DNA of 64,000 nt from a virus. A program made the position numbers and the translations under genes. The stretch covers positions 64,001-128,000 of IMG/VR virus record IMGVR_UViG_3300020182_000010; one strand, written 5' to 3'. A model generated the notes under the pieces. That model ran no database searches. It had not been told where the DNA came from and saw only the letters and a list, made by a program, of their open reading frames with translations. Positions within the stretch are counted from its first letter, which is position 1. Each line of letters opens with the position of its first letter. This document shows positions 13,871 through 45,434 of the stretch, in pieces.

Positions 13871-14310
13871 TATTTAAATCCTTTTTCTTTCATTAATTGA
13901 TTATGTTTTTCTATGTATTCATCTTTAAACTTTGGATGATTTGCATAATAATTTGCACCTTTGCCACCAGTATGTGCAAGTCTCACACTACCTGGAAAAC
14001 CATCGACATCATCTTTGTGTCTAGGGATAAAATGAATATGAGGCCACATAACTGTTTGTCCTGCGGCTTCGCCCATATTCATACCAAAATGATAAGCATC
14101 AATCTTGCCTTCATTTCTAAGAGCATCACCATATTCAATAGTTGCTTCTAATGCAAGTGTGATAAATTTTATATTATTTTGTCGAGGGACAAAAAGTAAG
14201 TGTCCATCACACACTGGCCATTTATCTTCATAAACTGCATAGTAATATTCATTGTGAAGCCGAAGATGTTCTGATTGCTCAAAGGGGGTGTCTTCAAATT
14301 TTTCAATCAT
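13870..14310 (-). CDS. HIT family nucleotide hydrolase (start re-assigned to ATG 14310)
   Basis: PVCDGHLLFVP, AGQTVMWPHIHFIPR. Confidence 0.9.
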   Translation of the reverse strand: MIEKFEDTPFEQSEHLRLHNEYYYAVYEDKWPVCDGHLLFVPRQNNIKFITLALEATIEYGDALRNEGKIDAYHFGMNMGEAAGQTVMWPHIHFIPRHKDDVDGFPGSVRLAHTGGKGANYYANHPKFKDEYIEKHNQLMKEKGFK

Positions 14311-15019
14311 GCCAGATATCCAAAACTGGCAATAAATGTGAAACAACCATCGCCGATTTTTTTGAACTATCATCCACGAATGTATCGAAATCTGTATGCG
14401 AATCTTCTCCTGCGAGATCACTTAGTACTCTGACAACAATGAATGGCACATTACATTGGCAACATACTTGTGCCAAAGCAGCACCTTCCATTTCGATAGC
14501 ATCAGCATTAAATTGATTGTAAAACATTTCTCTAGTCTGTGAACAACTAAGATACGTATCACCAGTTAGTATTGTTCCAAATTTTACATTTTTTCCCAGA
14601 TGTGATTGTAAATATTTTCGCATTTCAATACTCATTTCAAATGAGATTGGATTAGTTGAATCATCCAATGCTGGAAAACTTCCAGGTAAACTAGAGTATA
14701 CTTCTCCGTTTACTATGGCGCCATAATCATGTTGAATAAGTCTGTCTGCAATTATTACATCGCCGATATTATAGTTTGGATTTAGTCCACCCGCAACACC
14801 ACTAAACACGATACTATTACATTCAAAATGAGAAATTAATATGGTAGTTACAACTGCAGAGTTTACTTTTCCAATACCAGACTCAACTGCAATGATATCA
14901 ATGCCATTAATCTTACCAATTTGAAATTTCTTTTTCATAATTGTTTTAGTTACTGGTTCATTATCCCATTCAATTTTTGAATATTCTTCTGGAATAGCGG
15001 AAATCATTCCGACTGTCAT
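14303..15019 (-). CDS. mtnN: 5'-methylthioadenosine/S-adenosylhomocysteine nucleosidase
   Basis: SGIGKVNSA, SGVAGG, TGDTY, EMEGAA, RVLSDLA. Confidence 0.92.
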   Translation of the reverse strand: MTVGMISAIPEEYSKIEWDNEPVTKTIMKKKFQIGKINGIDIIAVESGIGKVNSAVVTTILISHFECNSIVFSGVAGGLNPNYNIGDVIIADRLIQHDYGAIVNGEVYSSLPGSFPALDDSTNPISFEMSIEMRKYLQSHLGKNVKFGTILTGDTYLSCSQTREMFYNQFNADAIEMEGAALAQVCCQCNVPFIVVRVLSDLAGEDSHTDFDTFVDDSSKKSAMVVSHLLPVLDIWHD

Positions 15020-16657: not shown

Positions 16658-17188
16658 CTATTCTTTAGCAACACCTGCAAGTTTTTGTAGACGACCGATG
16701 AAACCTACATCATCACGTTCACCTTCAAAAACAAATGTGTTTGACTTTTTGTTGTTTCGCAACTTGGTATACATTTCACCTGCTTTGCCAGGACTTAATG
16801 TACCTACGTCAAACATCTCGTCACCAGATTTGTCATAGACTTTTGCGCCCTCTTTATCTTTAATAAGAACACCGTCTTGATTATAACTTGCACCAAGTTC
16901 AATCATCTGTTGACGAAACTTTTCATCTGCTCCCTCTGGAGCAATAACGAAAAGTGAATCTTCTGCCACATGCACTTCTTCTGGAGTGCCTTGATTTTCA
17001 ATCCAATAGCCATCCACAAAAAAGAAGCCATAGCCTAACTTGCGAATAGTTGCCGCAAGTTGCCGGTTACGTCTTACATTTTCTTCACGATCATACTCGC
17101 CGCGAAACGCTGTCAATAGAGCAATAGGTCTATCTGATTTTGCGTGTTGCCAAATGCGTGATAACGATGCTTCTTGTACTTGTGTCAT
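16658..17188 (-). CDS. Conserved phage hypothetical protein
   Basis: EASLSRIWQH..LTAFRGE..YNQDGVL; own promoter. Confidence 0.7.
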   Translation of the reverse strand: MTQVQEASLSRIWQHAKSDRPIALLTAFRGEYDREENVRRNRQLAATIRKLGYGFFFVDGYWIENQGTPEEVHVAEDSLFVIAPEGADEKFRQQMIELGASYNQDGVLIKDKEGAKVYDKSGDEMFDVGTLSPGKAGEMYTKLRNNKKSNTFVFEGERDDVGFIGRLQKLAGVAKE

Positions 17189-19516: not shown

Positions 19517-20887
19517 TTATTTTTTATCTAACCAGCCTTGAGTTTCCATTAGACTCGTATTTCGTTTTCTAATTATATCTTCCTCTGTTTCCTCTTTAAC
19601 AGTTTCTTCTATAATAGTATCGTCTATATTAGCGTTAATGTCAAGTTCTTTTTTTTCTTTTTTTGCAAAAATTGCATCAAATATTTCTTCTTGGTGACCA
19701 TTATTACTATTACGATTTTGGAAACTATAATTAGCAGCAATTAATAATAATACTGCCAATGGATCAAAAACAAAAATGAATACAATTATTAACCAACGAA
19801 CTGCATCGTCAATTGTATTTCGTTCAGTATTACCATAAACAAGTTCTGCAATATATTTAATTGGTCCAACTTCTGCTTCTAACATACGAACTTCAGTTTC
19901 TAATTCAAATTTGGTATCTAGTAATTTAGATATACTAGTCTCAGTTTCTTTAACAGTTTCTAGCAATTCTGTGATTTTTTCGGTATTATCAATTTCGGCT
20001 ACACGATCTAGTTGACTACGTAATCGTGTAATAGTTGTTTGCGATTTCTGTACGTCACGGTCAGCAATAGAACGAAGTCTTTTTATTTCAACTCTTGCCT
20101 GTTCAACAACTGACGTATCAATACTATTACGAATATCTTCTACAATATTAACAAGTCTCTTCTTTTCTGATTGTTGTGATATACGAAACTGTTCCACTTT
20201 TTTTGCTGTTTGTGGACCGTAATTGCCATCAGTCTTAACTCCAACTAAGGCTTGTATTTTTTTTATATCATCATTTATAATGAATGACTGTAAATTATCA
20301 AGCGTAGTATCTACTTTAGAAATTTGTAGCAGATATGATTTTACCTGATTATCTGTGCCATTCTGTTCATTTAAAATAATAGCAAGTTGTTCATCAACTG
20401 CAGGTTGAACCCTAGCGTATGCTTGGTCCATACGCATTTGTTCTGCATCTATCTGTGCTTGTATTTCATCGGTGTTATTTGTATTTTGTGTTTCAAGTTT
20501 TTCAATCTTAATTTCTGAACGTGCTATAGTATCTTCATAGCGAACTATATCATTATCTATACGTTCTACACGTGCTTGTGATTGTAAACTTTCACTTGCC
20601 TGCTCTAAGTGAGCACGTGATAAAAAGCCAAAAATGCCCATCGATGTGATGAACATTAATACAATTACTGCAAATGTAAGATAAGATTTTAATAGAAACG
20701 GTGCACGTTTCCAATTACGGTAGACCCAAGATGCAGCAACTAACTTACCTACTTCTAAAGATCCTGCCATTATGGCAACTGGGATTGCCGATGCAGCAAA
20801 AATAGCCACAAGTCCTGCAACTGAAAACCATGCAGCAACCGCGGCTATAGTTAAGGCTACGATAAACACCAAAAGTGAAAAAAACAT
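19517..20887 (-). CDS. Multi-TM coiled-coil membrane protein with embedded PG-binding motif
   Basis: N-terminal TMs, LEVGKLV, ITSMGIFGFLS, VKTDGNYGPQT, EVGPIKYIAEL, FVFDPLAV. Confidence 0.7.
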   Translation of the reverse strand: MFFSLLVFIVALTIAAVAAWFSVAGLVAIFAASAIPVAIMAGSLEVGKLVAASWVYRNWKRAPFLLKSYLTFAVIVLMFITSMGIFGFLSRAHLEQASESLQSQARVERIDNDIVRYEDTIARSEIKIEKLETQNTNNTDEIQAQIDAEQMRMDQAYARVQPAVDEQLAIILNEQNGTDNQVKSYLLQISKVDTTLDNLQSFIINDDIKKIQALVGVKTDGNYGPQTAKKVEQFRISQQSEKKRLVNIVEDIRNSIDTSVVEQARVEIKRLRSIADRDVQKSQTTITRLRSQLDRVAEIDNTEKITELLETVKETETSISKLLDTKFELETEVRMLEAEVGPIKYIAELVYGNTERNTIDDAVRWLIIVFIFVFDPLAVLLLIAANYSFQNRNSNNGHQEEIFDAIFAKKEKKELDINANIDDTIIEETVKEETEEDIIRKRNTSLMETQGWLDKK

Positions 20888-21940: not shown

Positions 21941-21972
21941 ACTGTGTTTCCTTTGTTTCAATCTATACTTAC

Positions 21973-22001
21973 TTTATACAGTGATTCGTTTAGAATGTCA
22001 A
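21973..22001 (-). promoter_or_regulatory. Early promoter TTGACA-N17-TATAAA with CGAATCA (GANTC) in spacer
   Basis: TGATTCG at 21982-21988 (+). Confidence 0.85.
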
Positions 22002-22009
22002 GCTTTTTA

Positions 22010-22291: not shown

Positions 22292-22325
22292 AATAATTCT
22301 CTCTGCTGTTTCAATCTATACTTAC

Positions 22326-22354
22326 TTTATATAGTGATTCGTTCAGAATGTCAA
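22326..22354 (-). promoter_or_regulatory. Early promoter with GANTC in spacer
   Basis: TTGACA-N17-TATAAA; TGATTCG at 22335-22341; leader nearly identical to the 21955-22001 copy. Confidence 0.85.
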
Positions 22355-22377
22355 GTATTAATTAAGTTAATATAATA

Positions 22378-22898: not shown

Positions 22899-23237
22899 CT
22901 AATCATACTGATCCAATAAATGTGTTTTATCCTCAGTATATCCTTTGGCAGGATTAATTTCATCTGCGCCATTTAATGGTTCTTTTTGGTCTACAATTAC
23001 TTCCCATTTCTCAGACCATTTTGCATTAATATCATATAATCGTTGTGTGAATAACGGATCGGTATCTGCTATAATTGCATCTGCTGGACATTCGGGTTCA
23101 CAAACACCACAATCTATACATTCATCTGGATTGATTACCAGCATTTCTTCACCTTCGTAGAAACAGTCCACTGGACATACTTCTACACAGTCAGTGTACT
23201 TGCATTTAATGCAATCCTGTGTTACTACGTATGTCAT
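22899..23237 (-). CDS. fdxA: 7Fe ferredoxin FdxA
   Basis: [47 protein letters not shown]. Confidence 0.93.
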
Positions 23238-23709: not shown

Positions 23710-24093
23710 TTACTCTAAACTTCCGTCTTCTCTCATTTGTTTTCTAATTTTAGTGGCACTAATATCATGCATTTCTTTTCCTAAGTCGTGTTCAGTAAAA
23801 GTGTAGCCTACTCCACGTCCATAACTAATATCTACAATATTAGGTACGAGTAATATTACATAATCATGTTCTCTTTTAAATCCTTGTTTGCCTAATTCTA
23901 AACTAATTTTAAACACAATATTTTCAAAATCAAAAGGGTTATCATCTTGTGTTGCTGTGCGTCCAGCACCTGCGTCCTCACCAATAATACCGCCAACATC
24001 ACGTACCATTATGGCAACTTGTCCAGTTTCTTTGTAAGCACGTTTGAATAATTCAGTATGACCATCATGCCAAGGTTGCCATCTTCCTAGCAT
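23710..24093 (-). CDS. HIGH-family nucleotidyltransferase (cytidylyltransferase/ATP-sulfurylase-like)
   Basis: GRWQPWHDGH and ISATKIR; true start may lie about 10 codons upstream. Confidence 0.8.
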   Translation of the reverse strand: MLGRWQPWHDGHTELFKRAYKETGQVAIMVRDVGGIIGEDAGAGRTATQDDNPFDFENIVFKISLELGKQGFKREHDYVILLVPNIVDISYGRGVGYTFTEHDLGKEMHDISATKIRKQMREDGSLE

Positions 24094-24115
24094 TTGTGCT
24101 GTAGGTTTTTTGTAA

Positions 24116-24541
24116 TCAAATATTATTAATACCCATCCACCGTTGTACTACTGGCATAAGTTGCTGATGTGCATCGTTAAACCATTTCTCAATATGGTAG
24201 TCAACATCTTCAGGAGTTTCGAATAGTTTATTTGTGTCTTCAAATCGTCCTTCTTTGATAGTATCCATCCACACTGTAAAGTCAGCATCAAACTCTAATC
24301 TAGTTATGTAAGTAGGACACACAAAGTCAACAACTGCTACCTTGCCCGCCATGACTACTCCATCTGCTAAATGACGCATACGTTGCGCATGCCTTACACG
24401 CCCTTTTTTAGTAAAGTCCCAATCATCATACTTAGTACGCACCTCGTCTGCATTAATATGTACGCCATCTATTAGTTTAGCAAACGGTTTTGCAAGTGTG
24501 GTTTTGCCACTGCCAGGTAAACCAAATATTAATATTTTCAT
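24116..24541 (-). CDS. Adenylyl-sulfate (APS) kinase-like P-loop kinase
   Basis: GLPGSGKTT, NADEVR..DWDFT..GR, FVCPT, FETPE. Confidence 0.75.
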   Translation of the reverse strand: MKILIFGLPGSGKTTLAKPFAKLIDGVHINADEVRTKYDDWDFTKKGRVRHAQRMRHLADGVVMAGKVAVVDFVCPTYITRLEFDADFTVWMDTIKEGRFEDTNKLFETPEDVDYHIEKWFNDAHQQLMPVVQRWMGINNI

Positions 24542-24682
24542 AGATTTGATTCCTTCACAATATTCTCTTTAGAGCATATATACATATTACAGCAATTATT
24601 TATCAATGTCAAGCAAAATTAGTTGTATTTATAATAGCATAAATATATACATATCAAAAGTCTCACAGCAGAAAGAAAAACC

Positions 24683-25309
24683 ATGATACAGTATATTCAT
24701 CAATATGGCGATCAAGTAGCACTACAATCAAATCTAAACTGTGATCATTTGTTACAAGAATTAAGTCAGTTTGATGATGAATGGTCACAATATAATGTAT
24801 TAAAACCAACAATTAGACGACAAGGATTATGCGTATTAAATGAACGAGGAAATGTTGGGCCTGGCCCTGCACTTAATTCTCTTAGAGAATGGAATAAAAA
24901 ATACAATACTACTTTTTCTGAATCTGATTTTAATAAGCCTACCGAAGTATATAATAATAGTTTACAACTACAATCTATACTTGGAGAAATTCTTCCATAT
25001 TGTGTTAGAACCCATTTTTTAAGATTGGGACCAGGAGGATTTTTCCCACCACACCGAGATCATATTGGGAAAGAGCAATCTACATTTAGATTAATTGTTC
25101 CGATTAAGGCATTCAATCCACCAGATGCACGATTTATGATAGAAGATAGATCATTGTATTGGGAAGAGGGTAGAATGTATGCAGTAAACACAACCAAAGA
25201 ACACACATTGTTTAATGCTAGTAATCAAGATAGTATCTGGTTAGTAATTAATGCTAAAGTATGCGATGAAACTATTAGATTTGTGTCAAAAAATTTAAAA
25301 AGTAGATAA
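24683..25309 (+). CDS. Asp/Asn beta-hydroxylase-like 2OG-Fe(II) oxygenase
   Basis: GGFFPPHRD..RLIVP..NTTKEHTLFN. Confidence 0.8.
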   Translation: MIQYIHQYGDQVALQSNLNCDHLLQELSQFDDEWSQYNVLKPTIRRQGLCVLNERGNVGPGPALNSLREWNKKYNTTFSESDFNKPTEVYNNSLQLQSILGEILPYCVRTHFLRLGPGGFFPPHRDHIGKEQSTFRLIVPIKAFNPPDARFMIEDRSLYWEEGRMYAVNTTKEHTLFNASNQDSIWLVINAKVCDETIRFVSKNLKSR

Positions 25310-25804
25310 GTTAGATTGATGTAACTCATTAATTGTTTCTACATACGACATACTTATTACTATTCTGTTGTGTGGACTTTTAGAGTTATCTATCCTATGT
25401 GGAATGTCTACTCTCCAGCATTTTGGAGTTTGTAAATCTATAGTTTCTAAAACATTGTTACTTTCCATAGACTCCATATACTGAAATACACTAGTTTCAT
25501 GTACATTAACAGGAATATTAATTGCAGTGATCCGTTGTCTTATACCGCTTGCGTCTGCTTTATCATCAACGTGTGTTGCACATACACTATTTTTTGGTAC
25601 TGTAATAATTGCAGCATAACTAGGAGATATTGGCAGTGCATCAAAAATGTATGATAATTTGCTCATTTCCGATTGTGTCATAAGATGCGGTATTATTGTC
25701 CACGATGCATAAAGTGGGTTAGTTGGATTGTTACTTATATGAGTTATCCATTCTATATCGTCGGGACGAATAGATGGAACGTTTTTAATTTCAAACCATT
25801 TCAT
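25295..25804 (-). CDS. Putative 2OG-Fe(II)/cupin oxygenase
   Basis: HVD..AINIPV..VDIPHRIDN..RIVIS. Confidence 0.7.
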   Translation of the reverse strand: MKWFEIKNVPSIRPDDIEWITHISNNPTNPLYASWTIIPHLMTQSEMSKLSYIFDALPISPSYAAIITVPKNSVCATHVDDKADASGIRQRITAINIPVNVHETSVFQYMESMESNNVLETIDLQTPKCWRVDIPHRIDNSKSPHNRIVISMSYVETINELHQSNLSTF

Positions 25805-26283
25805 TTTTGTATCCTTTGTATATCTCCAATAGCGTCTGGCTCTCGGGTATGAACTGTAATTGCTATTCGTGTATTAGTTAACTCAGTAATATTATGATAT
25901 GTACTTACTGTGATATTATGCCAAACATTGTTTGGAAAGATTTCTCTTTCAATTTCATTTAAATCATCATCATACCATACAGTATTAACATTTCCGCCTG
26001 TATTGATAATGTAATTGTAACAGTTTGTTCTGCCAAAGTCTTTATGTATAGGTAAGTCCTGTGTTATTAATTGGAATGATATATCTACATCATTATCAAA
26101 ATATGGTTGTAAAAACGATTTTATCTCTTGTGGCGCAGTATGCAATGAGTACTTAGGCACTACATTATTTGGAGGTTCTACTCCGCTAAAATCTCTCGGG
26201 ATTTTTCGTATTTCATCTTCTGTGAACTTATCGATGATATCATTTGGAATTTGTGGAATATTCGGACAGTAACGATATAACAT
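25801..26283 (-). CDS. Putative 2OG-Fe(II)/cupin oxygenase
   Basis: PIHKD..YNYII..TYHNI..RIAIT. Confidence 0.7.
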   Translation of the reverse strand: MLYRYCPNIPQIPNDIIDKFTEDEIRKIPRDFSGVEPPNNVVPKYSLHTAPQEIKSFLQPYFDNDVDISFQLITQDLPIHKDFGRTNCYNYIINTGGNVNTVWYDDDLNEIEREIFPNNVWHNITVSTYHNITELTNTRIAITVHTREPDAIGDIQRIQK

Positions 26284-26293
26284 TAATTTACCT

Positions 26294-26893
26294 TTATACT
26301 AAGTGTTGAGTAAGTTCTCTGAAAAACTTCCAATCTGTTTTTTTATTATTAAATTTGAAAATCATTATTGCTCTTTGATGCGATTGTGGCAGTGGATTAA
26401 AAACACTATGCCATTTTTGATTATTAAATAGAACTGGAGTATCAGTTAATGCAAATTCATATGCGTGTGCTAATTCTCCGCTACTATACGCTTCACTTTT
26501 TTTCATTTTCTCGCCTATCACTTCGTCTATAGGTTCCCAGAAACTAGTAGTAATTTGTTCATTGCATCCAAAGACAGGGATATTTATACTACATGGATAA
26601 TTAATATTATCAGGATGATTGTCTCTATGGATAGGAATAAATTGTTTACTTCTGCGTTGGTCATGAAAATATCCAATCCACACACGGTCTATTACCATAT
26701 ATTCGTGTAGTTCCTTTGGTATTAAATGAAGTGCGGAATCTGTCATCGGTTCACTATTTAAAAACACTTGTTTCTTTTCATCATAGTGCTTATGAAATAT
26801 ATGATTTGCGACAGTAGTATCAATATTCAACGGAACAACATAGTCACTAATACTGTATTGAGTGTTATGTGTAATTGATTTCATTAAATCCAA
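26294..26893 (-). CDS. Putative 2OG-Fe(II)/cupin oxygenase
   Basis: PIHRD..SINIPV..KWHSVFN..RAIM. Confidence 0.7.
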   Translation of the reverse strand: MDLMKSITHNTQYSISDYVVPLNIDTTVANHIFHKHYDEKKQVFLNSEPMTDSALHLIPKELHEYMVIDRVWIGYFHDQRRSKQFIPIHRDNHPDNINYPCSINIPVFGCNEQITTSFWEPIDEVIGEKMKKSEAYSSGELAHAYEFALTDTPVLFNNQKWHSVFNPLPQSHQRAIMIFKFNNKKTDWKFFRELTQHLV

Positions 26894-27339
26894 TCCTTCG
26901 GAGTATCAATAATATCTTTTACTATATCTCCACACATCTGATGTGTTTTATAAACTGCCCATTTTTGTTTCTCATTAATAGTTTGCTGCACCAGACTGTT
27001 GAAGTCTACAGTTGATCCAGTAATTTTGTCTAAAGAAGATTTAACATATTTTTGTTCTCGGACGCTGCTAACAATTTTATAATTATTTTTAATAAATTCT
27101 AGTATTTCAGCATCTAGTAAATTCAATGTATGCCAATGGCCATGAAGAATATGTTTTTTATTTAAGACTACTTCTCGTATATTATATTCATTGCCATGTA
27201 AAAATTCAGAGGTATGTAATACCCCCATCGCGGTTGGTTTATTTAACAATGTCGAATAATGTTTTGCTAAACTGCGACTTGCAGTTCTTGGAAAACTGAT
27301 TACCGCTATATTACAAATAGTGTTTGACATATCATACAT
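26884..27339 (-). CDS. Sulfotransferase-like (P-loop) protein
   Basis: N-terminal VISFPRTASRSL resembles the 5'-PSB PAPS-binding loop; short. Confidence 0.45.
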   Translation of the reverse strand: MYDMSNTICNIAVISFPRTASRSLAKHYSTLLNKPTAMGVLHTSEFLHGNEYNIREVVLNKKHILHGHWHTLNLLDAEILEFIKNNYKIVSSVREQKYVKSSLDKITGSTVDFNSLVQQTINEKQKWAVYKTHQMCGDIVKDIIDTPKDWI

Positions 27340-28060
27340 TTCCCGGTGATACGTTGTTTAAAATAAAAGAATCTACCGCATATTTTGCAAAATCTTCTCC
27401 GTAATGAAACGTATGTTTAGTAGAAAAATTGTTATCCTTCGCATAATTAGTATAGGCAAATGGTATGCTATTAAGTTTTAATATGCTTTTAGATTCTAGA
27501 ATCCAAGACAAATCATTCCAATTTGAACTCAACGAATGACTTTTTTCTTCGTCTGTGAGCATGGCATCTTCTATATCTGAAAACATAAACTTGCATGGTA
27601 TGTTTTCATTGTCACAGAATGATTTTAATAATATTATATGTTGAAGTAAATCTGTCTTATCTTGTATTGAATTTTGTATATATTCAAAATACCCAAGTGC
27701 TGCTGCATTGAAACCTCTACCCTGATTTAATTTTTCATACCATAAAGATAGTGTAACTGGGTTATTAAGTGTTTTTAAAAACAATTCACGCCTATGTGAA
27801 TATGTCATCATAAACACTGCGTTGGGTTTCTTGTTTTGTTGAATTAAGTTTTTTATACCGATTATTGCTTTTCGTGTGATTAAATTGTTCGATGCTCCTG
27901 GTCTAGAATCGTTAATGACCGATACCCCCATCTGTTCTCCTAACAAAGCCGGCCACGAAAATTTGCTGGTTTTGAAATTATCGACAAATGTATTACCCAC
28001 ATCATCCATTCCAAATCCTTGTGTATGAGAACAGCCACCTGCATATAAAATATTTTCCAT
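27332..28060 (-). CDS. SGNH/GDSL-like hydrolase or acyltransferase (start re-assigned)
   Basis: GGCSHTQG, SWPALL, NDSRPGASN, C-terminal His. Confidence 0.65.
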   Translation of the reverse strand: MENILYAGGCSHTQGFGMDDVGNTFVDNFKTSKFSWPALLGEQMGVSVINDSRPGASNNLITRKAIIGIKNLIQQNKKPNAVFMMTYSHRRELFLKTLNNPVTLSLWYEKLNQGRGFNAAALGYFEYIQNSIQDKTDLLQHIILLKSFCDNENIPCKFMFSDIEDAMLTDEEKSHSLSSNWNDLSWILESKSILKLNSIPFAYTNYAKDNNFSTKHTFHYGEDFAKYAVDSFILNNVSPGNV

Positions 28061-28653
28061 TAGATATTTATTGTTTTTCGCATATTTTCGCATAGTCTTA
28101 TATCTTTAAGTGGTATGTTTGGAATTTCAAAATGTAAGCACAATCTATTTTCCGTAACATTTTTAACGCCGTGCCGTTTTGTAATGTTTAGAAATGTCGG
28201 AGAAGTTATTTGATACTCTCCGCCATCTTCATAATACGTGATTGATGACGAAATCCCCCACAGAGGTATCATCAGAACCGTATTTTTTCTATATGGAAAA
28301 TCTGAGTGTGTAGGCACATCTTCTCCTGCATGTTGAAGGAAAAATGAAACATCACCAATAACGATGTCGTTGTCAATTTTTTCTGATAACTGTTTTATTA
28401 TATTTGCAATTGTAGGATGAGTAGTGTCACACTTTGAAACAAAATCAGTACGCTTGTGTACTTTTTTTGTAATCGATTTTTTCAAATCTTTAATCGTATT
28501 ACCGATTACGTTTATCCCTGTATTTTTACAGAATTCATCTTTGTGATTAATATCAATATCATCAATATCATATGATCGCAGAGAGTTATAATAAGAAGTT
28601 AATACATCCACATCATAATCTAAATCTATGACTAGTACTTCACGATCATCCAT
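28060..28653 (-). CDS. Putative 2OG-Fe(II)/cupin oxygenase
   Basis: PTHSD..LMIPL..TKRHGVKN..RLCL. Confidence 0.7.
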   Translation of the reverse strand: MDDREVLVIDLDYDVDVLTSYYNSLRSYDIDDIDINHKDEFCKNTGINVIGNTIKDLKKSITKKVHKRTDFVSKCDTTHPTIANIIKQLSEKIDNDIVIGDVSFFLQHAGEDVPTHSDFPYRKNTVLMIPLWGISSSITYYEDGGEYQITSPTFLNITKRHGVKNVTENRLCLHFEIPNIPLKDIRLCENMRKTINI

Positions 28654-28722
28654 GAGGTAATTTATCCAAATTCTCTATCTCCATAGTAATTATATGTATT
28701 CAAAAAACTATATTCATATTTA

Positions 28723-29400
28723 TTATATTATAAACTGTGTTCGCCATAACATACGTTCACCCTCGAATGCTACTCTTTTATGGATCATTTTTAGATTGTC
28801 CCAGATTAATATCTCGTTATCCTGCCATTCATGCATATATGCATTTGCTTCTACCCATTCTTTAATAGGACGTAAGTCTATTTCATTATTGCGCAATGTG
28901 TTTATACTACAATATAGTATATCTTCACCAGTGACATGATGCTTAATATTAAATGGTCGCTTTATTTTTTGTTTCTCTAGTAATCGTAGTTGTCTATCAG
29001 TAAAACATTCGCCATGCAAATGTATAGGAGGGTAGTATTCACCTATAGAATCTTTATACAGTTCTCTAAGTTCAAGTGGTGCATTACTCATATTACAGAA
29101 CCAAGTTGGTGAAAGATGAGCATTTTTTACATTGTACAATATTGTACCAAAGTAGTTTCCTCTACCATAACTCCAATCATTATGCCAGTCTACATCGCCG
29201 GTATTGAACAATCCATTATTACTTAACTCTTGCACAGTACGATTGTCATTAATCACATGCTTGTCTGTGATTAATGGTTTTCCTAATTCACTGACAATAT
29301 ACTCGAAATCTGTTAATGTTATTGAACTATTTAATGAGACTTTCACAAGACCATTCGTCATAAGATCCTGCTTGATGGTCTCTATATTCAATTGTTTCAT
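28723..29400 (-). CDS. TauD/TfdA-family dioxygenase (canonical HxD)
   Basis: DWHND, TWFCNM, HEWQDNEILIWDNLKMIHKR, RMLWR. Confidence 0.85.
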   Translation of the reverse strand: MKQLNIETIKQDLMTNGLVKVSLNSSITLTDFEYIVSELGKPLITDKHVINDNRTVQELSNNGLFNTGDVDWHNDWSYGRGNYFGTILYNVKNAHLSPTWFCNMSNAPLELRELYKDSIGEYYPPIHLHGECFTDRQLRLLEKQKIKRPFNIKHHVTGEDILYCSINTLRNNEIDLRPIKEWVEANAYMHEWQDNEILIWDNLKMIHKRVAFEGERMLWRTQFII

Positions 29401-30262
29401 CTACCTTTTCCTTTACTTCCTCGTCTCTATACCAAATACCTGCTCTCCACAATTCGCGGTCGCCAGTATATGCTTCTCTTTTATGTAGACTGTGATGTTG
29501 GTCACTAAAACAGATATCATAATTATTCCATTCGTGTTCATACACATATTTTTCATCTTGTGTATGCTTTTTCAGTTTATAATATAAGTTATGCTGTGCA
29601 TCTTTAGAAATTCCACTAAATCCTCGAATAACAGTCCAAGGAAAATATAGGCCTTCCTTATTATTGATAGGGTGAGTTGTGACTAAATCTTTTCTTGGTG
29701 TTTGTTTTTCGAAACTGTTTTGTCCATCTATATCTTTGAACTCCATCATAGTTTGTTCATCACTAAAAATTCTCTTGTAATACATTTGCTCAAGTTTCAA
29801 CTTAGCATTATATGTTACGATTTTAGACTTTATGTTACGAAGAATGTCTTTTGTATTATCATCCAAATCTGCAAAAGCCGTTTGACTATCAGAGAAGAAC
29901 GTATTTCCACCACTCTCTGCATTTTGATGCATGTACATAACTACAACATCATCATGTCCCTTACGATTCATTCCAGCACTATGCCACTCTAATTCACCGT
30001 CTTCTTCACCGCTAAATAATCCATTTTTTCTAACTTTAATAAGTTCGCCATGTCCCGCGACATTTCCTTTGACTTTTGTATTTTGTGATACCACCTCACC
30101 AATTGTTTTATAAAATGATACTAGAGTTTCTGGTGGTACTGGATCATTATTTCTCACTACCACTACACGGCAATCACCTATTAGTTCTCTAATTTTATCT
30201 GCATCGTTTTCATAATCGCATTCAGTCACAATTGCTGCAAATTTATTTTTTTCTACAATCAT
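29327..30262 (-). CDS. TauD/TfdA-fold enzyme with HxA (halogenase-type) iron motif
   Basis: EWHSAG, GGNTFFSD..AFADL, LVTTHP, HEWN..DQHHSLHKR, RELWR. Confidence 0.8.
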   Translation of the reverse strand: MIVEKNKFAAIVTECDYENDADKIRELIGDCRVVVVRNNDPVPPETLVSFYKTIGEVVSQNTKVKGNVAGHGELIKVRKNGLFSGEEDGELEWHSAGMNRKGHDDVVVMYMHQNAESGGNTFFSDSQTAFADLDDNTKDILRNIKSKIVTYNAKLKLEQMYYKRIFSDEQTMMEFKDIDGQNSFEKQTPRKDLVTTHPINNKEGLYFPWTVIRGFSGISKDAQHNLYYKLKKHTQDEKYVYEHEWNNYDICFSDQHHSLHKREAYTGDRELWRAGIWYRDEEVKEKVDETIEYRDHQAGSYDEWSCESLIK

Positions 30263-30815
30263 TTTTCACTCTTTCTAACCCTATATTTATACAGTCTTTC
30301 GTCAATGGAAGCCAAGTTATATTTTGTTCACAACTACTATCTCCGTTGCATACATAAAACTGGTCTGTTTCCATGATCCAGTCTGGCCATTGCATTTTGT
30401 TGTGCAAGAAGTATTTAAATCCATTAATACCGAACTTACCTTCTCTACTCATAAATGCATAATCAAATTTAAGATTGCCAACTAATTCTATCTGCTGTTC
30501 AATCATTTGTTTTGTATATTCAATATCGTTAACCGCAAATCTATAATCCGAAGATTTAATAAATCTATTTAGAACCCTACATCCATTTCCATAAAATTGT
30601 TTTCTATGTAAAACAGAAGAAAACCCCAATATTTTACCAGATTGCGTTTCATACGTTGATGCTCCAACCCAATCATCAATGTTTAACCGCTTCATTGTAT
30701 AATTATATTTTAGATTGTCTTGAAAATTTGATTGTGTAATAAACTGTTTTATGCTTTCAATATATGATTCCCAATTATTATCGGCAGAATTTATTGTTTT
30801 AATAGTTAAATTCAT
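30243..30815 (-). CDS. GNAT-fold-like protein
   Basis: KILGFSSV..RVLNRF..QQIE..YAFMSRE pattern; weak. Confidence 0.45.
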   Translation of the reverse strand: MNLTIKTINSADNNWESYIESIKQFITQSNFQDNLKYNYTMKRLNIDDWVGASTYETQSGKILGFSSVLHRKQFYGNGCRVLNRFIKSSDYRFAVNDIEYTKQMIEQQIELVGNLKFDYAFMSREGKFGINGFKYFLHNKMQWPDWIMETDQFYVCNGDSSCEQNITWLPLTKDCINIGLERVKNDCRKK

Positions 30816-31734
30816 TTTGCTTCACATGTTCAAAGAATGGCGCAATTGTCCAATTCTGAGTCAACCGTCCTCTACTAGTGTTATCATGATCAATAACACC
30901 GTCATCGTCAATTTCCCAATCAATTAATCTTACGTATACTGGTCCTGCTTGTGTTTCATACTCAAACATCCAGGATGAAAGAGTTTCACCACTTTGTGGT
31001 CCTGCCGCAACAACTCCCGCTGCAGTCTTATATATGTCTTTTTCATTAATACCTAGTTGTAATTTTGCTATATCTTTAAGTTCTTGTATATTATATGAAG
31101 AATTTTCCATATATCTACCAATTTGTCCCACACTTTTCATTCGAAGTACGGGACGAATTCTATTATATGGCGGAGTAGTATTAAAATCTATTCCACTATT
31201 GCAGGCTAGTTCACCAAATAATTCTATTTGTCTTTTTAATGTATGTTCGTTTACATTTTTTGCAATGATTGTACCAGTGTTCACTGGCAGTCTCGCATCA
31301 AAAACATTTTTCAATGCTCTAACTTTTACCGTTGACCAATTGCCTTCATCTAATACTTTGTATACATTATCATCATCTGCGCCGTTCATACTAAGCAATA
31401 GTAATCTGAGGCCTGCATCTTTTAGATTGGATGTGTAACTCTTATTTGCTAACTTTAGTCCGTTGGTAGTTAGACTAGGGCGATGTCCTAATCTTTTTGT
31501 AGTTGCAATAATCTCACATATATCCTCTCTCATAGTAGGTTCTGCTCCTATTAATCTGATATAGGTACGAGCAGGTAATCGTTTGATAATGTCAAATAAT
31601 TTATTTTTATCAATATCTGGAATATCACGATTTGGAATATAACAGTTAGCACACTCCATGTTACATCGATGAGTTAGATCAACTACAATGTTACTGAATG
31701 TATTATTTTCTGGTTCTAATTCGTAATAATTCAT
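30799..31734 (-). CDS. Radical SAM enzyme (MoaA/NifB/PqqE-like core)
   Basis: LTHRCNMECANCY (CxxxCxxC), GAEPT, TTNG. Confidence 0.9.
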   Translation of the reverse strand: MNYYELEPENNTFSNIVVDLTHRCNMECANCYIPNRDIPDIDKNKLFDIIKRLPARTYIRLIGAEPTMREDICEIIATTKRLGHRPSLTTNGLKLANKSYTSNLKDAGLRLLLLSMNGADDDNVYKVLDEGNWSTVKVRALKNVFDARLPVNTGTIIAKNVNEHTLKRQIELFGELACNSGIDFNTTPPYNRIRPVLRMKSVGQIGRYMENSSYNIQELKDIAKLQLGINEKDIYKTAAGVVAAGPQSGETLSSWMFEYETQAGPVYVRLIDWEIDDDGVIDHDNTSRGRLTQNWTIAPFFEHVKQNEFNY

Positions 31735-32070
31735 TTATGATTCAATTGATTTGTATTCTGCCTGTGTTATAGTCTCTATGTCACTTATTACTAAATATTC
31801 ACCTAATGATTGTAATAACATTGTTAGATCATTATGCATATCAGATGCATGAGCCTTATATCGGTAGTAATTGGTCTGGAGCACATTGGAACCGTTATCT
31901 ACTCTGGTAGATTTTCTATCACCACTAATGTCAAGCTCTTTTTCATCAGATAGCCGATATGTTATACTGGTGAATTGATCTGAACCAATTGTTTCTTCAA
32001 ACCACGATAGATATTGATCATGGTTTTTTCCATCTGGGTAATCTATACTAACTGTAAATTTATATGGCAT
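31735..32070 (-). CDS. Hypothetical protein, first gene of the tailoring operon
   Basis: AAAGGAAAA RBS; TATAAATA at 32115-32122. Confidence 0.7.
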   Translation of the reverse strand: MPYKFTVSIDYPDGKNHDQYLSWFEETIGSDQFTSITYRLSDEKELDISGDRKSTRVDNGSNVLQTNYYRYKAHASDMHNDLTMLLQSLGEYLVISDIETITQAEYKSIES

Positions 32071-32114
32071 TTTTGTTTTCCTTTTGTTTTAATTAAATAA
32101 TTTATCTAGTTATC

Positions 32115-32122
32115 TATTTATA
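32115..32122 (-). promoter_or_regulatory. T4-type late promoter TATAAATA
   Basis: Exact T4 late consensus just downstream of a terminator. Confidence 0.65.
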
Positions 32123-32142: not shown

Positions 32143-32169
32143 TTGGTCTGGGCAAATTGCCCAGACCAA
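32143..32169 (-). terminator. Hairpin terminator
   Basis: TTGGTCTGGGCA/TGCCCAGACCAA perfect stem. Confidence 0.75.
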
Positions 32170-32175
32170 CATCTA

Positions 32176-32526
32176 TTATTTTCCTTTGTTTACAAAATTG
32201 TAAAACTGTTGTGCAGCTTCAAGAATTTGTTCTGTTCCTGGAACTTCTGGCATTTCTACCTTCGTTACAACTTCATCATGTTCTTTGCGAACTGATGTTT
32301 CGAACATACCATATTTTGCATAATAGTCCTGCCACATTTGTGATTGTGCCATTTCTAATACTTGAGTGCGAATTTCATAACCATTTTTATTAAAAGTTAC
32401 TTTAGGAAGTGAAGGAGGTGTCATTTTTTGAAATGCTTCTGTAAATGCCTCTGGTTTCATTCCGGTGTTTTTGTATAAATCGCTGAATTTTTCAGCCATC
32501 TCTGTCATTTGTTTCATATCGAACAT
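32176..32526 (-). CDS. Conserved phage hypothetical protein downstream of tmRNA
   Basis: NKNGYEIRTQVLEMA..ILEAAQQFYNFVN; AC-rich leader + AAAGGAGA. Confidence 0.75.
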   Translation of the reverse strand: MFDMKQMTEMAEKFSDLYKNTGMKPEAFTEAFQKMTPPSLPKVTFNKNGYEIRTQVLEMAQSQMWQDYYAKYGMFETSVRKEHDEVVTKVEMPEVPGTEQILEAAQQFYNFVNKGK

Positions 32527-33434: not shown

Positions 33435-34130
33435 TCAAGTCCTGACGCTGTTGTGCTTGCGATCCATAAACATCTTTGCTGTTTCAACTGCTACTGCTGC
33501 ATCTCTACAATACGCATCTGCACCAATTGCTTTTCCAAATTCTTCATTTAGTGGTGCGCCGCCTACTAGTATTGTATAATCATCACGCATACCTTTTTCA
33601 ATCATTACATCAATAACAACCTTCATATATGGCATTGTTGTTGTAAGTAATGCACTCATACCTAATATATCTGGATTATGTTCTTCGATTGCATCAAGAT
33701 AAGCCTGAACATCGTTATTAATACCAATATCGTGTACATCAAATCCTGCACCTTCCATCATCATGCCAACTAAGTTCTTACCAATGTCATGTATATCACC
33801 TTTAACTGTGCCGATAACCATAGTTCCAACTTGTGGTGCGCCTGTTTCCGCAAGTAGAGGTTTAAGAATTGACATACCGCCTTTCATAGCGTTTGCTGCC
33901 AGTAGCACTTCAGGCACAAACAATATGCCATCTCTGAAGTCGATGCCAACAATTGTCATACCAGCAACTAAAGATTCTGTTAGTACACGATATGGTTCCC
34001 ATCCTCGCTCTAATAGAATATTTGTGCCTTCTTCTACCTCTTCTTTTAGACCATCATACAAATCATCGCCCATTTGAATTACTAATTCTTCATCATTTAA
34101 TTCAGAGAGTACAATATTATCATCTTCCAT
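33435..34130 (-). CDS. Stand-alone cobalamin-binding (corrinoid) protein, split methionine-synthase type
   Basis: FVPEVLLAANAMK cap domain; GTVKGDIHDIGKNLV (DxHxxG), SALLTTT, VGGAP. Confidence 0.92.
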   Translation of the reverse strand: MEDDNIVLSELNDEELVIQMGDDLYDGLKEEVEEGTNILLERGWEPYRVLTESLVAGMTIVGIDFRDGILFVPEVLLAANAMKGGMSILKPLLAETGAPQVGTMVIGTVKGDIHDIGKNLVGMMMEGAGFDVHDIGINNDVQAYLDAIEEHNPDILGMSALLTTTMPYMKVVIDVMIEKGMRDDYTILVGGAPLNEEFGKAIGADAYCRDAAVAVETAKMFMDRKHNSVRT

Positions 34131-34175
34131 TATTCTTCTCACTTGTATAGGTTAACATATCTATTTATAAGCAAT

Positions 34176-35390: not shown

Positions 35391-35542
35391 TCAGATTTCC
35401 AGATAGTCCATATACCATATGCAATTGCTGCATATGCAATTAAATCAACTGGTACAATGAGCATTGCAATTCCAGTTGCAACTAGTGCTGCACCGTCGAG
35501 TGTTGTACGTTCTTTTAGTCTATTTTTAATCCAATTAATCAT
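35387..35542 (-). CDS. Small 2-TM membrane protein (holin-like), 51 aa, not in ORF track
   Basis: MINWIKNRLKERTTLDGAALVATGIAMLIVP..YGIWTIWKSE; AAGGAG RBS. Confidence 0.7.
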   Translation of the reverse strand: MINWIKNRLKERTTLDGAALVATGIAMLIVPVDLIAYAAIAYGIWTIWKSE

Positions 35543-36464
35543 TTTTTTTCTCCTTTAATAATTTATTATAAAACAGTTCTTCATCTGGACAATTATTATG
35601 TTCAATTTGAATAGTTGTATGTACTATTTTATAATTATCGATTAATAGTTTCTTGGTATTATATATTGTATCATCACATTCGCCATCATCCAATATATTG
35701 ATGTGCATAGCGGCTGAAATTTGTCCGCTTGCTAATTCCCATATATGTATATGGTGAACATTACTAACATGATCGATATTTGTTATAATATCTTTTACTA
35801 TAACATCAACATCAATATGTTCTGGTTTTCCAGTCATTAGTATTCTAATACAATCTTTTAATAATTCCCAACCACTTTTTAATATCAAACTGGCCAGAAC
35901 TACACTTATAATAGGATCAATATAATACCAATCAGTAAAATATATTACGATACCACCTATAATGGCACCAACACTGCCTAAAATATCAAGTAAGATATGA
36001 AGTATCACTCCTCGCATATTAATATTATGACCATCATGGTGATGATGCACCACTTTAAATAAAACCAAATTAACGATTAATCCAACAATAGCAATTGGTA
36101 ACATCCAATATATATCAACATGCTCAGGATTTAGTATACGATAAATTGCTTCGTATATAATATATCCAAAAAGTCCAATCCACATCAGTGCATTTAAAAA
36201 TGCTGCAATAACTTCCGCTCTCATAAATCCATATGAATATGTATCTGTTGGTGGTTTTCTGCCAATCCAAAATCCAAATACTGCAATAATCATTGCTAAT
36301 GCATCAGTTGAAAGATGTAATGCATCACTCAATAACGCAAGTGAATTACTTATATGTGCACCAAATAATTCGATAACAACAAATAATATTAAAATAAAAA
36401 TGCTTATTTTTAATGCACGTTCTTCTTTGCCGGCTTTTCTGATATGATATTGATTATGCTTCAT
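35535..36464 (-). CDS. Cation diffusion facilitator (CzcD/ZitB-type Zn/Co/Cd exporter)
   Basis: SLALLSDALH..D, YSYGFMRAE, His-rich loop, HILLDILGS, HHIHIW, HTTIQIE. Confidence 0.92.
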   Translation of the reverse strand: MKHNQYHIRKAGKEERALKISIFILILFVVIELFGAHISNSLALLSDALHLSTDALAMIIAVFGFWIGRKPPTDTYSYGFMRAEVIAAFLNALMWIGLFGYIIYEAIYRILNPEHVDIYWMLPIAIVGLIVNLVLFKVVHHHHDGHNINMRGVILHILLDILGSVGAIIGGIVIYFTDWYYIDPIISVVLASLILKSGWELLKDCIRILMTGKPEHIDVDVIVKDIITNIDHVSNVHHIHIWELASGQISAAMHINILDDGECDDTIYNTKKLLIDNYKIVHTTIQIEHNNCPDEELFYNKLLKEKKND

Positions 36465-45383: not shown

Positions 45384-45434
45384 TTTATCCTCATTCTATT
45401 ATGTTATATTTATTCATTTAATTAACTTCTACTA

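Follow-up and report, generated by a model that had tools for sequence, protein, structure and literature searches.

Genes and signals at the locus

The stretch of DNA analyzed here (the window) comprises 64,000 nucleotides of an IMG/VR virus record. The source is an uncultured marine giant phage, and the 155-kb record represents only 42% of its genome. The region of interest is organized in two transcription units: unit 1, which runs from 32122 to 25295 on the minus strand, and unit 2, which holds genes M and N together with FdxA. The features are as follows.

32143..32169, no strand: hairpin with a 12-bp stem, separating the operon from the gene upstream of it (32176-32526)
32115..32122, minus: TATAAATA, a T4-late-promoter-like word, 45 nt 5′ of the first ATG and just past the 12-bp hairpin
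31735..32070, minus: A, acidic protein of 111 aa, fold unknown; abuts the radical SAM gene B
30799..31734, minus: B, radical SAM enzyme with invariant CNMECANC; anchor of the cassette
30243..30815, minus: C, GNAT-fold protein (acyl-transfer fold)
29327..30262, minus: D, TauD-fold Fe/2OG enzyme with an HxA site (WHSAG)
28723..29400, minus: E, Fe/2OG dioxygenase of the TauD/TfdA type, canonical HxD site; no gene accompanies B more constantly
28060..28653, minus: F, AspH-like cupin oxygenase, HSD...H; accessory
27332..28093, minus: G, SGNH/DUF6071-like protein; accessory
26884..27339, minus: H, P-loop protein of 151 aa, kinase/sulfotransferase fold, with invariant HGHWH and a PRTAS loop; frequent accessory after E
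26294..26893, minus: I, AspH-like oxygenase, HRD...H
25801..26283, minus: J, probable cupin oxygenase, HKD...H; weak profile support
25295..25804, minus: K, AspH-like oxygenase, HVD...H; final operon gene
24683..25309, plus: L, Asp_Arg_Hydrox-family oxygenase; its 3′ end overlaps the 3′ end of K by 15 nt
24584..24633, minus: promoter region of unit 2, with TATAAATA at 24626-24633 followed by TTGACA-17-TAATAT at 24612-24584
24116..24541, minus: M, APS-kinase-like P-loop kinase, C-terminal lid absent
23710..24093, minus: N, minimal HxGH/ISxTxxR nucleotidyltransferase with NMNAT-like motifs
22899..23237, minus: FdxA-type 7Fe ferredoxin, packed tightly with M and N in one unit
14303..15019, minus: MtnN (MTA/SAH nucleosidase); the distance to gene K, where the operon ends, exceeds 10 kb

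Unit 1 consists of 11 genes, A-K, on the minus strand with coding sequence from 32070 to 25295, and all ORFs are intact. A and B abut, overlaps are present at B/C, C/D, D/E, F/G, G/H, H/I, and J/K, and just two intergenic spaces separate the genes (69 nt between E and F, 10 nt between I and J). The operon encodes the 111-aa protein, the radical SAM enzyme, the GNAT-fold protein, two TauD and four AspH-like oxygenases, the SGNH-like protein, and the P-loop sulfotransferase/kinase-fold protein; L, a fifth AspH-like gene, is convergent to it. The tightly coupled operon with these enzymes described in an earlier note on this DNA is thus borne out in its packing and in its family assignments. The terminator-like hairpin marks the boundary of the operon. 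Late expression behind TATAAATA had also been suggested. The word does lie upstream of the operon, but it is not enriched across the window (10 observed versus 12.5 expected), and late expression is therefore suggested by its position only.

Unit 2, which comprises M, N, FdxA, two small ORFs, and an ORF of 169 aa, is a module distinct from unit 1 and is served by a host-type promoter of its own. M scores above the Pfam APS_kinase cut-off over the N-terminal two thirds, but M and N fall far short of the APS-kinase and NMNAT equivalog cut-offs, and a search of the 155-kb record for ATP sulfurylase found none. Moreover, cultured phages of Xylella and Stenotrophomonas encode M and N as one fused protein without having the cassette, and there the fused gene is located among replication genes. 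Conversely, the cassette occurs without M-N in 74 of 80 loci, the pair being found within 4 to 6 kb of B in the other six. The proposal that this pair could supply PAPS is not supported. FdxA and MtnN each pass the NCBIfam equivalog cut-offs, which agrees with their earlier identification; their suggested role as nearby support functions finds no counterpart in linkage, as FdxA accompanies the cassette in 0 of 80 loci and MtnN is distant here and not cassette-linked in relatives.

Core enzymes and accessory genes

B matches Radical_SAM with 55 bits (cut-off 29.5). Over the SAM-binding core its best solved relatives are the lipid-coupling GDGT-MAS (8e-25) followed by MoaA (6e-20). In contrast to GDGT-MAS/Tes and MoaA, B has no second Cys cluster or auxiliary Fe-S cysteines, carries a conserved C-terminal domain of its own (W273, RGRxT, FFEHVK), and scores well under the cut-offs of known families. 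The GNAT fold of C is supported by an AF2 model with pLDDT 90.5, a Foldseek E of 1e-6, and a VIA Z of ~11; at the sequence level C has no Pfam match, no family, and no recognizable Q/RxxGxG (CoA-binding) motif.

E matches TauD with 56 bits, has the site WHND, and carries the full HxD...H...R motif set. Its nearest solved relatives (1.9e-19 to 1e-7), namely TfdA, the ScoE/Rv0097-type amino-fatty-acid oxygenases, TauD, and AtsK, are all small-molecule enzymes. Relative to these, E (225 aa) is the shorter protein, it is invariably coupled to a radical SAM enzyme, and it scores well under every NCBIfam equivalog cut-off.

D matches TauD with 109 bits, and its WHSAG lines up with WHSD of TfdA. The HxA reading of the earlier note is confirmed: none of the 15 D-type orthologues departs from HxA, and the 2OG Arg and distal His are retained too. 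In this respect D resembles the Fe(II)/2OG halogenases SyrB2/CmaB/HctB, WelO5, and BesD, in that the triad carboxylate is replaced by Ala, both His and the 2OG-binding Arg are kept, and the substitution is conserved across orthologues. On the basis of this halogenase-type iron site D is a candidate halogenase. The likeness has limits. D is a member of the TauD/TfdA family PF02668, whereas Iyer et al. (2010, PMC2938197) place SyrB2, CmaB, and HctB among the phytanoyl-CoA dioxygenases; the family comparison covers these three halogenases. D has no carrier protein nearby, and a sister lineage has HxN. Since D-type proteins of a sister clade and of Pelagibacter phage Mosig carry HxN instead of HxA, the absent carboxylate may signal chemistry other than halogenation. 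In AspH, a two-His iron site is still able to hydroxylate (PMC10947486).

Among the accessory genes, F, I, and K are tied to AspH-like families (hhalign 92-97%) and J weakly so (42-52%), and L matches Asp_Arg_Hydrox with 31 bits (cut-off 22.6). The HxD..H triad is present in every member of the F, I, J, K, and L families save 1 of 27 I-type sequences. G has a Pfam match below threshold, and the ESM Atlas places it beside viral SGNH/DUF6071 clusters (TM ~0.8). Fold comparison of H gives a tie between kinases and sulfotransferases (Z ~9).

Conservation of the core and comparison with known systems

The earlier note named random shuffling of gene content among relatives as the outcome that would speak against it. 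The reverse is seen: all 11 non-redundant loci in which B is at least 60% identical keep the order radical SAM-GNAT-TauD(HxA)-TauD(HxD) and the strand, a co-inheritance that among related phages partly reflects shared descent. The gene immediately 5′ of the cassette belongs to nine different clusters in these 11 loci. At 48-60% B identity, C is retained in seven of 10 loci and TauD likewise in 7/10. The closest relative with DNA available (B 85%) reads A-B-C-D-E′-H-I-J-K, the order unchanged, with F and G missing; in a relative at 93% B identity, G is located between the TauD genes D and E. Hence, accessory content varies even at 85-93% B identity, including some inverted genes. H, I, J, and K vary among relatives, and only the first five genes form the stable part: unit 1 pairs a conserved set of enzymes with a tail that varies.

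In the B tree, a clade of 41 rows (aLRT 100) holds all TauD-partnered B, including those of Geminicoccaceae and Rhodospirillales chromosomes. In the alphaproteobacterial chromosomes B and E overlap and are followed by GNAT, beside ABC exporters or within an RTX/HlyB/HlyD type I secretion operon. In sister clades all 22 loci have a fatty-acid desaturase paired with B, while an ACP occurs in 10 of the 22 and C likewise in 10. One sister-clade group carries an AcpS-like gene, recognized by motif only. Across phages and some bacteria the core is thus passed on together, and it is not a random island. Protein A is found in one narrow sub-clade, where it leads the B-C-D-E core; an HMM search found it in none of 80 IMG/VR loci, and it has no Cys, no repeats, and no leader/core organization. 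It is therefore not a general substrate, which weakens its proposed role as a candidate substrate. Taken together, the operon, the enzyme palette, and the co-inherited core of the earlier reading stand, whereas the substrate role of A, PAPS supply, and the FdxA/MtnN linkage are unsupported or weakened.

Comparable phage enzyme islands are already in the literature, as uncharacterized systems. Iyer, Abhiman, de Souza, and Aravind (2010, PMC2938197) described tandem dioxygenase/halogenase arrays in cyanophage Syn9, with function predicted from context, and bacterial operons with β-hydroxylase, sulfotransferase, PAPS synthetase, and acetyltransferase, predicted to modify tail-collar/collagen-like proteins. 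As in those systems, several distantly related Fe/2OG oxygenases share one phage operon with function assigned by context only, and an acetyltransferase-fold protein, a sulfotransferase-like protein, and a predicted halogenating function are combined with them. In contrast, the present cassette has a radical SAM enzyme and two TauD-fold enzymes as its anchors, its halogenase candidate is an Fe/2OG HxA enzyme rather than a flavin tryptophan halogenase, and it has no bona fide PAPS synthetase and no adjacent tail-collar/collagen-like gene. The host recognition cluster of pelagimyophages and cyanomyophages, defined by tail fibres and a location between VrlC and gp14 (Zaragoza-Solas et al. 2020, PMC7029224), is likewise a variable accessory island of marine myophages with radical SAM cassettes. 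The island of Pelagibacter phage Mosig EXVC030M has a C homologue (hhalign 92.5%), a desaturase, two AspH-like genes, and a D-type TauD whose carboxylate is missing (WHSN); profile comparison of its MoaA-like gene (one of two so annotated) with B gave no match. Unlike that cluster, the present cassette belongs to a jumbo phage from a different lineage and is separated from fibre-like genes by 10-14 kb.

Possible role of the cassette

We consider it about an even chance that unit 1 is one tailoring pathway acting on one substrate, most likely a small anionic or acyl-type metabolite that the host provides, or else an acyl group finally passed to an acceptor. In such a pathway, B would cleave SAM and take hydrogen from an unactivated carbon, and E would hydroxylate beside a carboxylate, sulfonate, or heteroatom, as for TfdA, TauD, AtsK, and ScoE. 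D, with its open iron site, might install chloride or bromide or give another non-hydroxylating outcome, and C would join an acyl donor via an amide or ester. AspH-like enzymes could add further hydroxyls, on one of which H may place a sulfate or phosphate ester. The exchangeable tail comprises the AspH-like hydroxylases F, I, J, and K with convergent L, the SGNH-like G, and the P-loop protein H. The 155-kb record (42% of the genome) contains no scaffold-building enzyme, ACP, or desaturase, and the acyl reading consequently leans on the sister clades. The lack of a recognizable CoA-binding motif and of a sequence-level family for C weighs against this reading. Two features fit a protein target as well: AspH-type enzymes include protein hydroxylases, and one bacterial locus lies in an RTX secretion operon. 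That B's next-best relatives MoaA, BlsE, and viperin act on nucleotides is a further point against the pathway.

Modification of a protein or peptide seems unlikely. On this reading, hydroxyl, acyl, and perhaps sulfate groups would be added to a virion fibre, to protein A, or to some protein that the host makes or that is secreted. Substrates of this kind were predicted by Iyer et al. (2010, PMC2938197), five AspH-like genes lie at the locus, and the AspH family includes protein β-hydroxylases; yet the nearest characterized relatives of E fall outside the protein/amino-acid β-hydroxylase branch. The related island abuts tail-fibre genes in Mosig and in distant viral loci, whereas here the nearest fibre genes are ~14 kb and ~10 kb from the two operon ends. 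In Geminicoccaceae locus L088, B-E-GNAT is flanked by a gene for an RTX protein on one side and by genes for HlyB/HlyD-type exporters on the other, a layout that recalls the hly operon, with the acyltransferase gene hlyC paired with toxin and exporter genes, but this context is seen in a single bacterial locus. Protein A is conserved and abuts B in its sub-clade, but most cassettes are without it, and it lacks Cys, repeats, and a leader/core organization.

It is quite improbable that the locus is a hypervariable accessory island whose enzymes each act alone on host metabolites and whose adjacency is historical. In its favour are the differences in accessory genes among close relatives (F/G presence, G between D and E, inversions), the unrelated flanking genes (corrinoid protein, CDF transporter, epimerase, ClpX, lipase), and the published precedents of radical SAM cassettes in pelagimyophage hypervariable islands (PMC7029224) and of the tandem dioxygenase arrays in Syn9 (PMC2938197). 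Against this, core order and strand persist amid diverse flanks down to ~50% B identity, and the core recurs in bacterial chromosomes with B overlapping E. Nucleoside or nucleotide chemistry, or phage DNA modification, with phosphorylation and nucleotidylation by M and N, appears very improbable. B does resemble nucleotide-acting radical SAM enzymes (MoaA, BlsE, viperin-type), M lies directly 5′ of A-B in the relative with 93% B identity, and the proximity of M-N to B in six loci and the place of the fused gene among replication genes point the same way. However, as described above, M-N occurs without the cassette in cultured phages and the cassette is mostly without M-N, the operon shows no base-modifying families (thymidylate-synthase-like, DpdA, TET/JBP), and the sister-clade partners are ACP and desaturases.

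Returning to the tailoring pathway, many phages and some bacteria share the core as a unit, and because of this recurrence the cassette probably tailors one molecule.

Organization and conservation of the operon

Eleven minus-strand ORFs, abutting or overlapping and separated solely by gaps of 69 nt and 10 nt, extend from position 32070 down to 25295, which bears out the tight coupling claimed in the earlier note. The operon begins with a 111-aa protein (A), a radical SAM enzyme (B), a GNAT-fold protein (C) and two TauD-family proteins (D and E, reading HxA and HxD, respectively). It continues with F to K, among which F, I, and K are AspH-like oxygenases, J is a probable one, G is SGNH-like, and H has a P-loop kinase/sulfotransferase fold; a further AspH-like oxygenase (L) is convergent on the plus strand. 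Upstream of gene A there is a hairpin with a 12-bp stem together with the word TATAAATA. The suggested late expression finds the word in place ahead of gene A but not enriched, its frequency in the window being no higher than in shuffles, and late expression is for this reason plausible only. A scan for sigma-70 promoters and terminators gave counts at chance level.

To what extent the operon is a unit was addressed with 80 viral loci carrying B relatives at 35-73% identity, plus closer metagenome contigs; all window genes were mapped onto the sampled loci and all locus ORFs were clustered. In all 11 non-redundant loci where B identity is at least 60% and at least 3 kb is available downstream of B, C and the TauD genes lie beside B in the same order and on the same strand, and the gene immediately upstream belongs to nine different clusters. 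The closest relative with DNA (L083, B 85% identical) reads A-B-C-D-E'-H-I-J-K, without F and G, and a 93% relative carries an M-like kinase, A-B-C-D, a G-sized gene, and then E. By these gene orders, genes one to five form a stable block and the remainder is exchangeable. Hence, random shuffling of gene content, the outcome that would speak against a concerted pathway, is not borne out for the core (B-C-D-E), and the idea of the whole operon as one cassette stands for its first five genes and not for the later ones. None of the 80 loci carries FdxA or any gene from either side of the region. A search for direct repeats around the cassette turned up only short, AT-rich pairs attributable to chance, plus a duplicated promoter elsewhere. 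A 49-nt direct repeat (21954-22002 and 22307-22355; 96% identical), which includes TGATTCG and a reversed TTGACA, is probably a duplicated promoter.

Three groups emerge from 84 B sequences in a quick maximum-likelihood tree, whose long-branch warnings concern the deepest split only. The clade of the window (41 rows, full support) combines B with TauD genes and extends to copies on the chromosomes of Geminicoccaceae, Rhodospirillales, and another alphaproteobacterial MAG. In the second clade, to which many Bdellovibrionota chromosomes belong, the partners are a fatty-acid desaturase and an acyl carrier protein, in some loci adjoined by a probable AcpS (motif reading only). The third has a desaturase, a C homologue, AspH-like genes, and a D-type TauD around B. 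At the alphaproteobacterial loci, a small GNAT comes after B and the E-type TauD gene with which B overlaps; an ABC exporter is located upstream of B in L089 and L092. This overlap and these contexts make B and E the minimal conserved pair, with C and D as additions of the phage lineage. On a Geminicoccaceae chromosome (L088, 5517-13925), genes for an RTX-repeat protein, B, TauD E, a GNAT, an HlyB-type protein, and HlyD follow one another, and the HlyB-type protein has a C39-like domain without the catalytic Cys. This locus is a type I secretion operon in which three tailoring enzymes are embedded. The GNAT after B and E in L088 was compared with C, and a relation was undetectable.

The enzymes of the cassette and protein A

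B belongs to the radical SAM superfamily (PF04055, 55.4 bits vs a gathering cut-off of 29.5), and its CxxxCxxC cluster motif, CNMECANC, is invariant in 41 B sequences. MoaA (66 bits vs 231-325), Tes (62 vs 450), and SPASM-twitch enzymes (TrsS, 87 vs 490) were rejected as identities; with a single Cys outside the SAM motif, B does not qualify as carrying a C-terminal auxiliary Fe-S cluster. The best solved relative is the lipid-coupling enzyme GDGT-MAS, followed by MoaA. The family comprises 1165 proteins in public metagenomes, and an ESM Atlas search with B returned solely its own viral radical SAM clusters. No homologue of B, E, or I was found in 50,697 phage records, the sole matches being a radical SAM protein of Enterococcus phages at 27% (B) and a TauD of phage Mosig, also at 27% (D). 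A PHROGs search yielded only "radical SAM".

For C, searches of Pfam, NCBIfam, and PDB profiles gave zero matches, and the GNAT assignment comes from an alignment-based AlphaFold (AF2) model (pLDDT 90.5). Foldseek reported 347 matches at E <= 0.001, of which the top ones listed are GNATs, and VIA-align gave Z 11.3 and rmsd 3.9 over 144 aligned residues; AHL synthases and FeeM are tied at Z ~10. The Q/RxxGxG/A acyl-CoA loop was not seen in the C alignment consensus. Among the AspH-like proteins, L scores 31.4 bits against Asp_Arg_Hydrox (cut-off 22.6), and profile-profile comparison (hhalign) ties F, I, and K to AspH-like clusters at 92-97% and J weakly at 42-52%. The HxD...H triad is kept in all five families F, I, J, K, and L. 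The enzyme palette read from the sequence is thereby largely confirmed: by Pfam score for B, D, E, and L, by predicted fold for C, and by likeness to AspH for F, I, and K.

G is a candidate SGNH protein and H a candidate sulfotransferase. The nearest ESM Atlas structural clusters of G are viral SGNH/DUF6071 proteins (TM ~0.8), at a sub-threshold DUF6071 score (16 bits vs 27). H has no Pfam match; its model (AF2, pLDDT 88) shows the P-loop fold common to small kinases and sulfotransferases, and its fold matches to Stf0 (Z 9.0), Schistosoma sulfotransferases, Cpz8, and SgdX2 are equalled by kinases at Z 8-9. Its loop reads PRTAS(R/K)S, without a Gly-rich Walker A, and HGHWH is invariant.

Only eight relatives of protein A turned up when 1.8 billion representatives were searched exhaustively with phmmer; seven of the eight are 106-115 aa long. 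The one examined (32% identical) lies directly ahead of radical SAM-C-TauD genes, as does the homologue in L083 (41%); an A-family HMM had no match in the other loci. A is acidic and without Cys, and its 13 invariant residues are scattered over the full length. A RiPP precursor was rejected on these features and on the lack of a PqqD-type match at E up to 10. A was proposed earlier as a substrate or scaffold, a proposal that its narrow sub-clade, lack of Cys, and spread of invariant residues do not favor; it looks like a folded partner protein limited to the sub-clade rather than a precursor peptide or a general component. Kinship with other ~100-aa neighbours of B (clusters 6, 62, 134, 485, and 508) was rejected since hhalign found no relation; the only related pair among those B-side small proteins is 134 and 485. 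Permissive searches of PDB and Pfam with A gave nothing consistent. Residues 49-93 of A weakly match nine Ig-like (Big_13/PKD) repeats of P0162, a 2468-aa bacterial Kelch/Ig surface protein (L118, 6001-13404; summed E 2e-6). This match may hint at a beta-sandwich, or may be compositional.

TauD-family proteins D and E and the possible chemistry

D and E are members of the TauD/TfdA family (PF02668, 109 and 55.9 bits vs a gathering cut-off of 27). The nearest solved relatives of the E profile are TfdA, ScoE/Rv0097-type amino-fatty-acid oxygenases, TauD, and AtsK, which are small-molecule enzymes that oxidise a carbon adjoining a carboxylate, sulfonate, sulfate, or amine. The motif WH[NHR]D is common to all E-type proteins. 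In D, the WHxD motif reads WHSAG, which HMMER aligns with the WHSD of TfdA. H[SC]A is present in all 15 D-type orthologues, and both the distal His and the RELWR arginine (the 2OG Arg) are kept; D can thus be rejected as a canonical 2-His-1-carboxylate 2OG dioxygenase, as the carboxylate ligand is absent. HxN is found in a more distant (sister) D-type group and in the TauD of the cultured Pelagibacter phage Mosig. The D lineage is thus one defined by carboxylate loss.

An HxA/G site with the distal His and 2OG Arg, as found in D, is the sequence criterion for Fe/2OG halogenases. The carboxylate loss is a hallmark of such enzymes, which makes D a candidate halogenase and is not proof. Iyer et al. 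2010 (PMC2938197) place SyrB2, CmaB, and HctB in the phytanoyl-CoA dioxygenase family and not in the TauD family, and human AspH, which has only two His ligands, is a hydroxylase (PMC10947486). It appears improbable that D is a genuine TauD-fold Fe/2OG halogenase in a phage-encoded radical pathway which, late in the infection of a marine alphaproteobacterium, makes a metabolite or surface decoration that is both halogenated and acylated. Such a pathway would combine the radical SAM enzyme, the halogenase, hydroxylases, and acyl transfer, perhaps with sulfation.

With or without halogenation, we put at roughly evenly balanced the reading that the cassette tailors a small molecule of anionic or acyl type, perhaps with a last step that passes an acyl group to an acceptor. 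It is favored by the relatives of E, by the likeness of B to GDGT-MAS, by the acyl-transfer fold of C, and by the ACP and desaturase that sister clades carry as their own. The AspH-like enzymes in the operon, the RTX/type I secretion locus, and the related island adjoining tail fibres in Mosig would also fit a protein target (a virion fibre, a secreted protein, or A itself), which we consider unlikely but a rival to be taken seriously. That the genes form an island of unrelated enzymes is distinctly unlikely, and nucleotide chemistry very improbable.

The M-N pair, the genome setting, and related islands

M (APS-kinase-like) and N (a nucleotidyltransferase) lie in a separate, tight unit behind a TTGACA-17-TAATAT promoter, together with two small ORFs, FdxA, and a 169-aa ORF. 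M-N-type genes are located as follows.

Window, 23710-24541: M and N
L086, 4992-5738: M-N-type gene
L087, 4001-4732: M-N-type gene

M matches APS kinase over its N-terminal two thirds only. As an APS kinase it was rejected (28 bits vs cut-offs of 127-139; Pfam model positions 5-89 of 152 only; 141 aa, without the lid). N carries HxGH and ISATKIR, motifs like those of NMNAT (24 bits vs 127). In cultured phages Salvo (gp32) and Sano (Xylella phages), Bacata, Suzuki, and DLP_6 (a Stenotrophomonas phage), M-N is one fused protein of ~245 aa whose annotation goes no further than "kinase" or "adenylylsulfate kinase"; it is set among replication and nucleotide genes, and no B match was found in those phage records. 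The fusion looks like a widespread bifunctional phage enzyme. The link of M and N to the cassette is loose: M adjoins A in one close relative, and M-N lies within 4-6 kb of B in six loci. ATP sulfurylase (PF01747) was not found in the 155-kb record (42% of the genome). Given these scores, the fusion and separate unit, and the missing ATP sulfurylase, the proposed supply of PAPS by M and N is unsupported. FdxA and MtnN, put forward as possible support functions, reach NCBIfam equivalog scores, so their identities stand; a link between FdxA and the cassette does not, given its absence from the 80 loci.

The window covers bases 64001-128000 of a 155-kb IMG/VR virus record, whose CheckV completeness (42%) suggests a jumbo phage with a genome of ~350 kb or more. 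GC is ~33% across the window without a compositional break at the cassette, and zero nucleotide similarity to cultured phages was found. Fibre-like genes flank an accessory stretch of roughly 30 kb.

9516-11273: Peptidase_S74 fibre-like gene
42680-48074: Mtd_N and DUF7217 fibre-like proteins

ClpX, ClpS, HSP20, IF3, an M17 aminopeptidase, DnaB, and other accessory genes are also encoded in the window. Directly downstream of the Peptidase_S74 gene is an extra cupin/AspH-like gene (8926-9510; TIGR02466 family, weak Asp_Arg_Hydrox match). A 456-aa protein (19517-20887), between ClpX and a glycine-zipper protein, has a sub-threshold N-terminal Tetraspanin match (30.6 bits vs 32.1) that suggests a membrane protein. 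Besides its SAM-dependent radical enzyme and MtnN, the phage has a SAM lyase family gene (16658-17188; PF23780, 43 bits); the destruction of SAM and its use may be separated in time. Two genes upstream of the operon is an MtgC/MtbC-like corrinoid-binding protein (33435-34142; 194 bits, below cut-off), and beyond it are a CDF cation-efflux gene (35535-36464) and an NAD-dependent sugar epimerase/dehydratase (36461-37378).

Islands of the same general kind have been described. Iyer et al. 2010 (PMC2938197) predicted, with none tested, arrays in cyanophages that combine up to ten dioxygenases with tryptophan halogenases, and bacterial beta-hydroxylase/sulfotransferase/PAPS synthetase/acetyltransferase operons with tail-collar or collagen-like proteins. 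Zaragoza-Solas et al. 2020 (PMC7029224) gave the hypervariable "host recognition cluster" of pelagimyophages its name and reported radical SAM cassettes in it; the cluster is defined as an island among tail-fibre genes, between VrlC and gp14. The defined, mobile radical SAM/GNAT/TauD(HxA)/TauD(HxD) core and its bacterial counterparts are described in neither paper. In Mosig (MT647606.1; L121, 2121-8374), a cultured pelagimyophage, the island adjoining the tail-fibre genes comprises two AspH-like genes, a fatty-acid desaturase, an aminotransferase, an FMN reductase, a peroxiredoxin, a methylase, and a C homologue; its TauD has WHSN in place of WHxD. One "MoaA-like" Mosig gene was rejected as a B homologue, having no match to the B profile.

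Marine phage genomes are full of unexplained radical SAM/oxygenase islands. Here, a compact four-to-five-gene unit kept across phages and bacteria offers a defined target for expression and assay, and Mosig, with homologues of two core genes beside its tail fibres, a laboratory entry point. If D is a halogenase, it would represent a new lineage within the TauD family and new virus-encoded chemistry in chloride- and bromide-rich seawater, and the cassette would give viruses their first known pathway of Fe/2OG halogenation.
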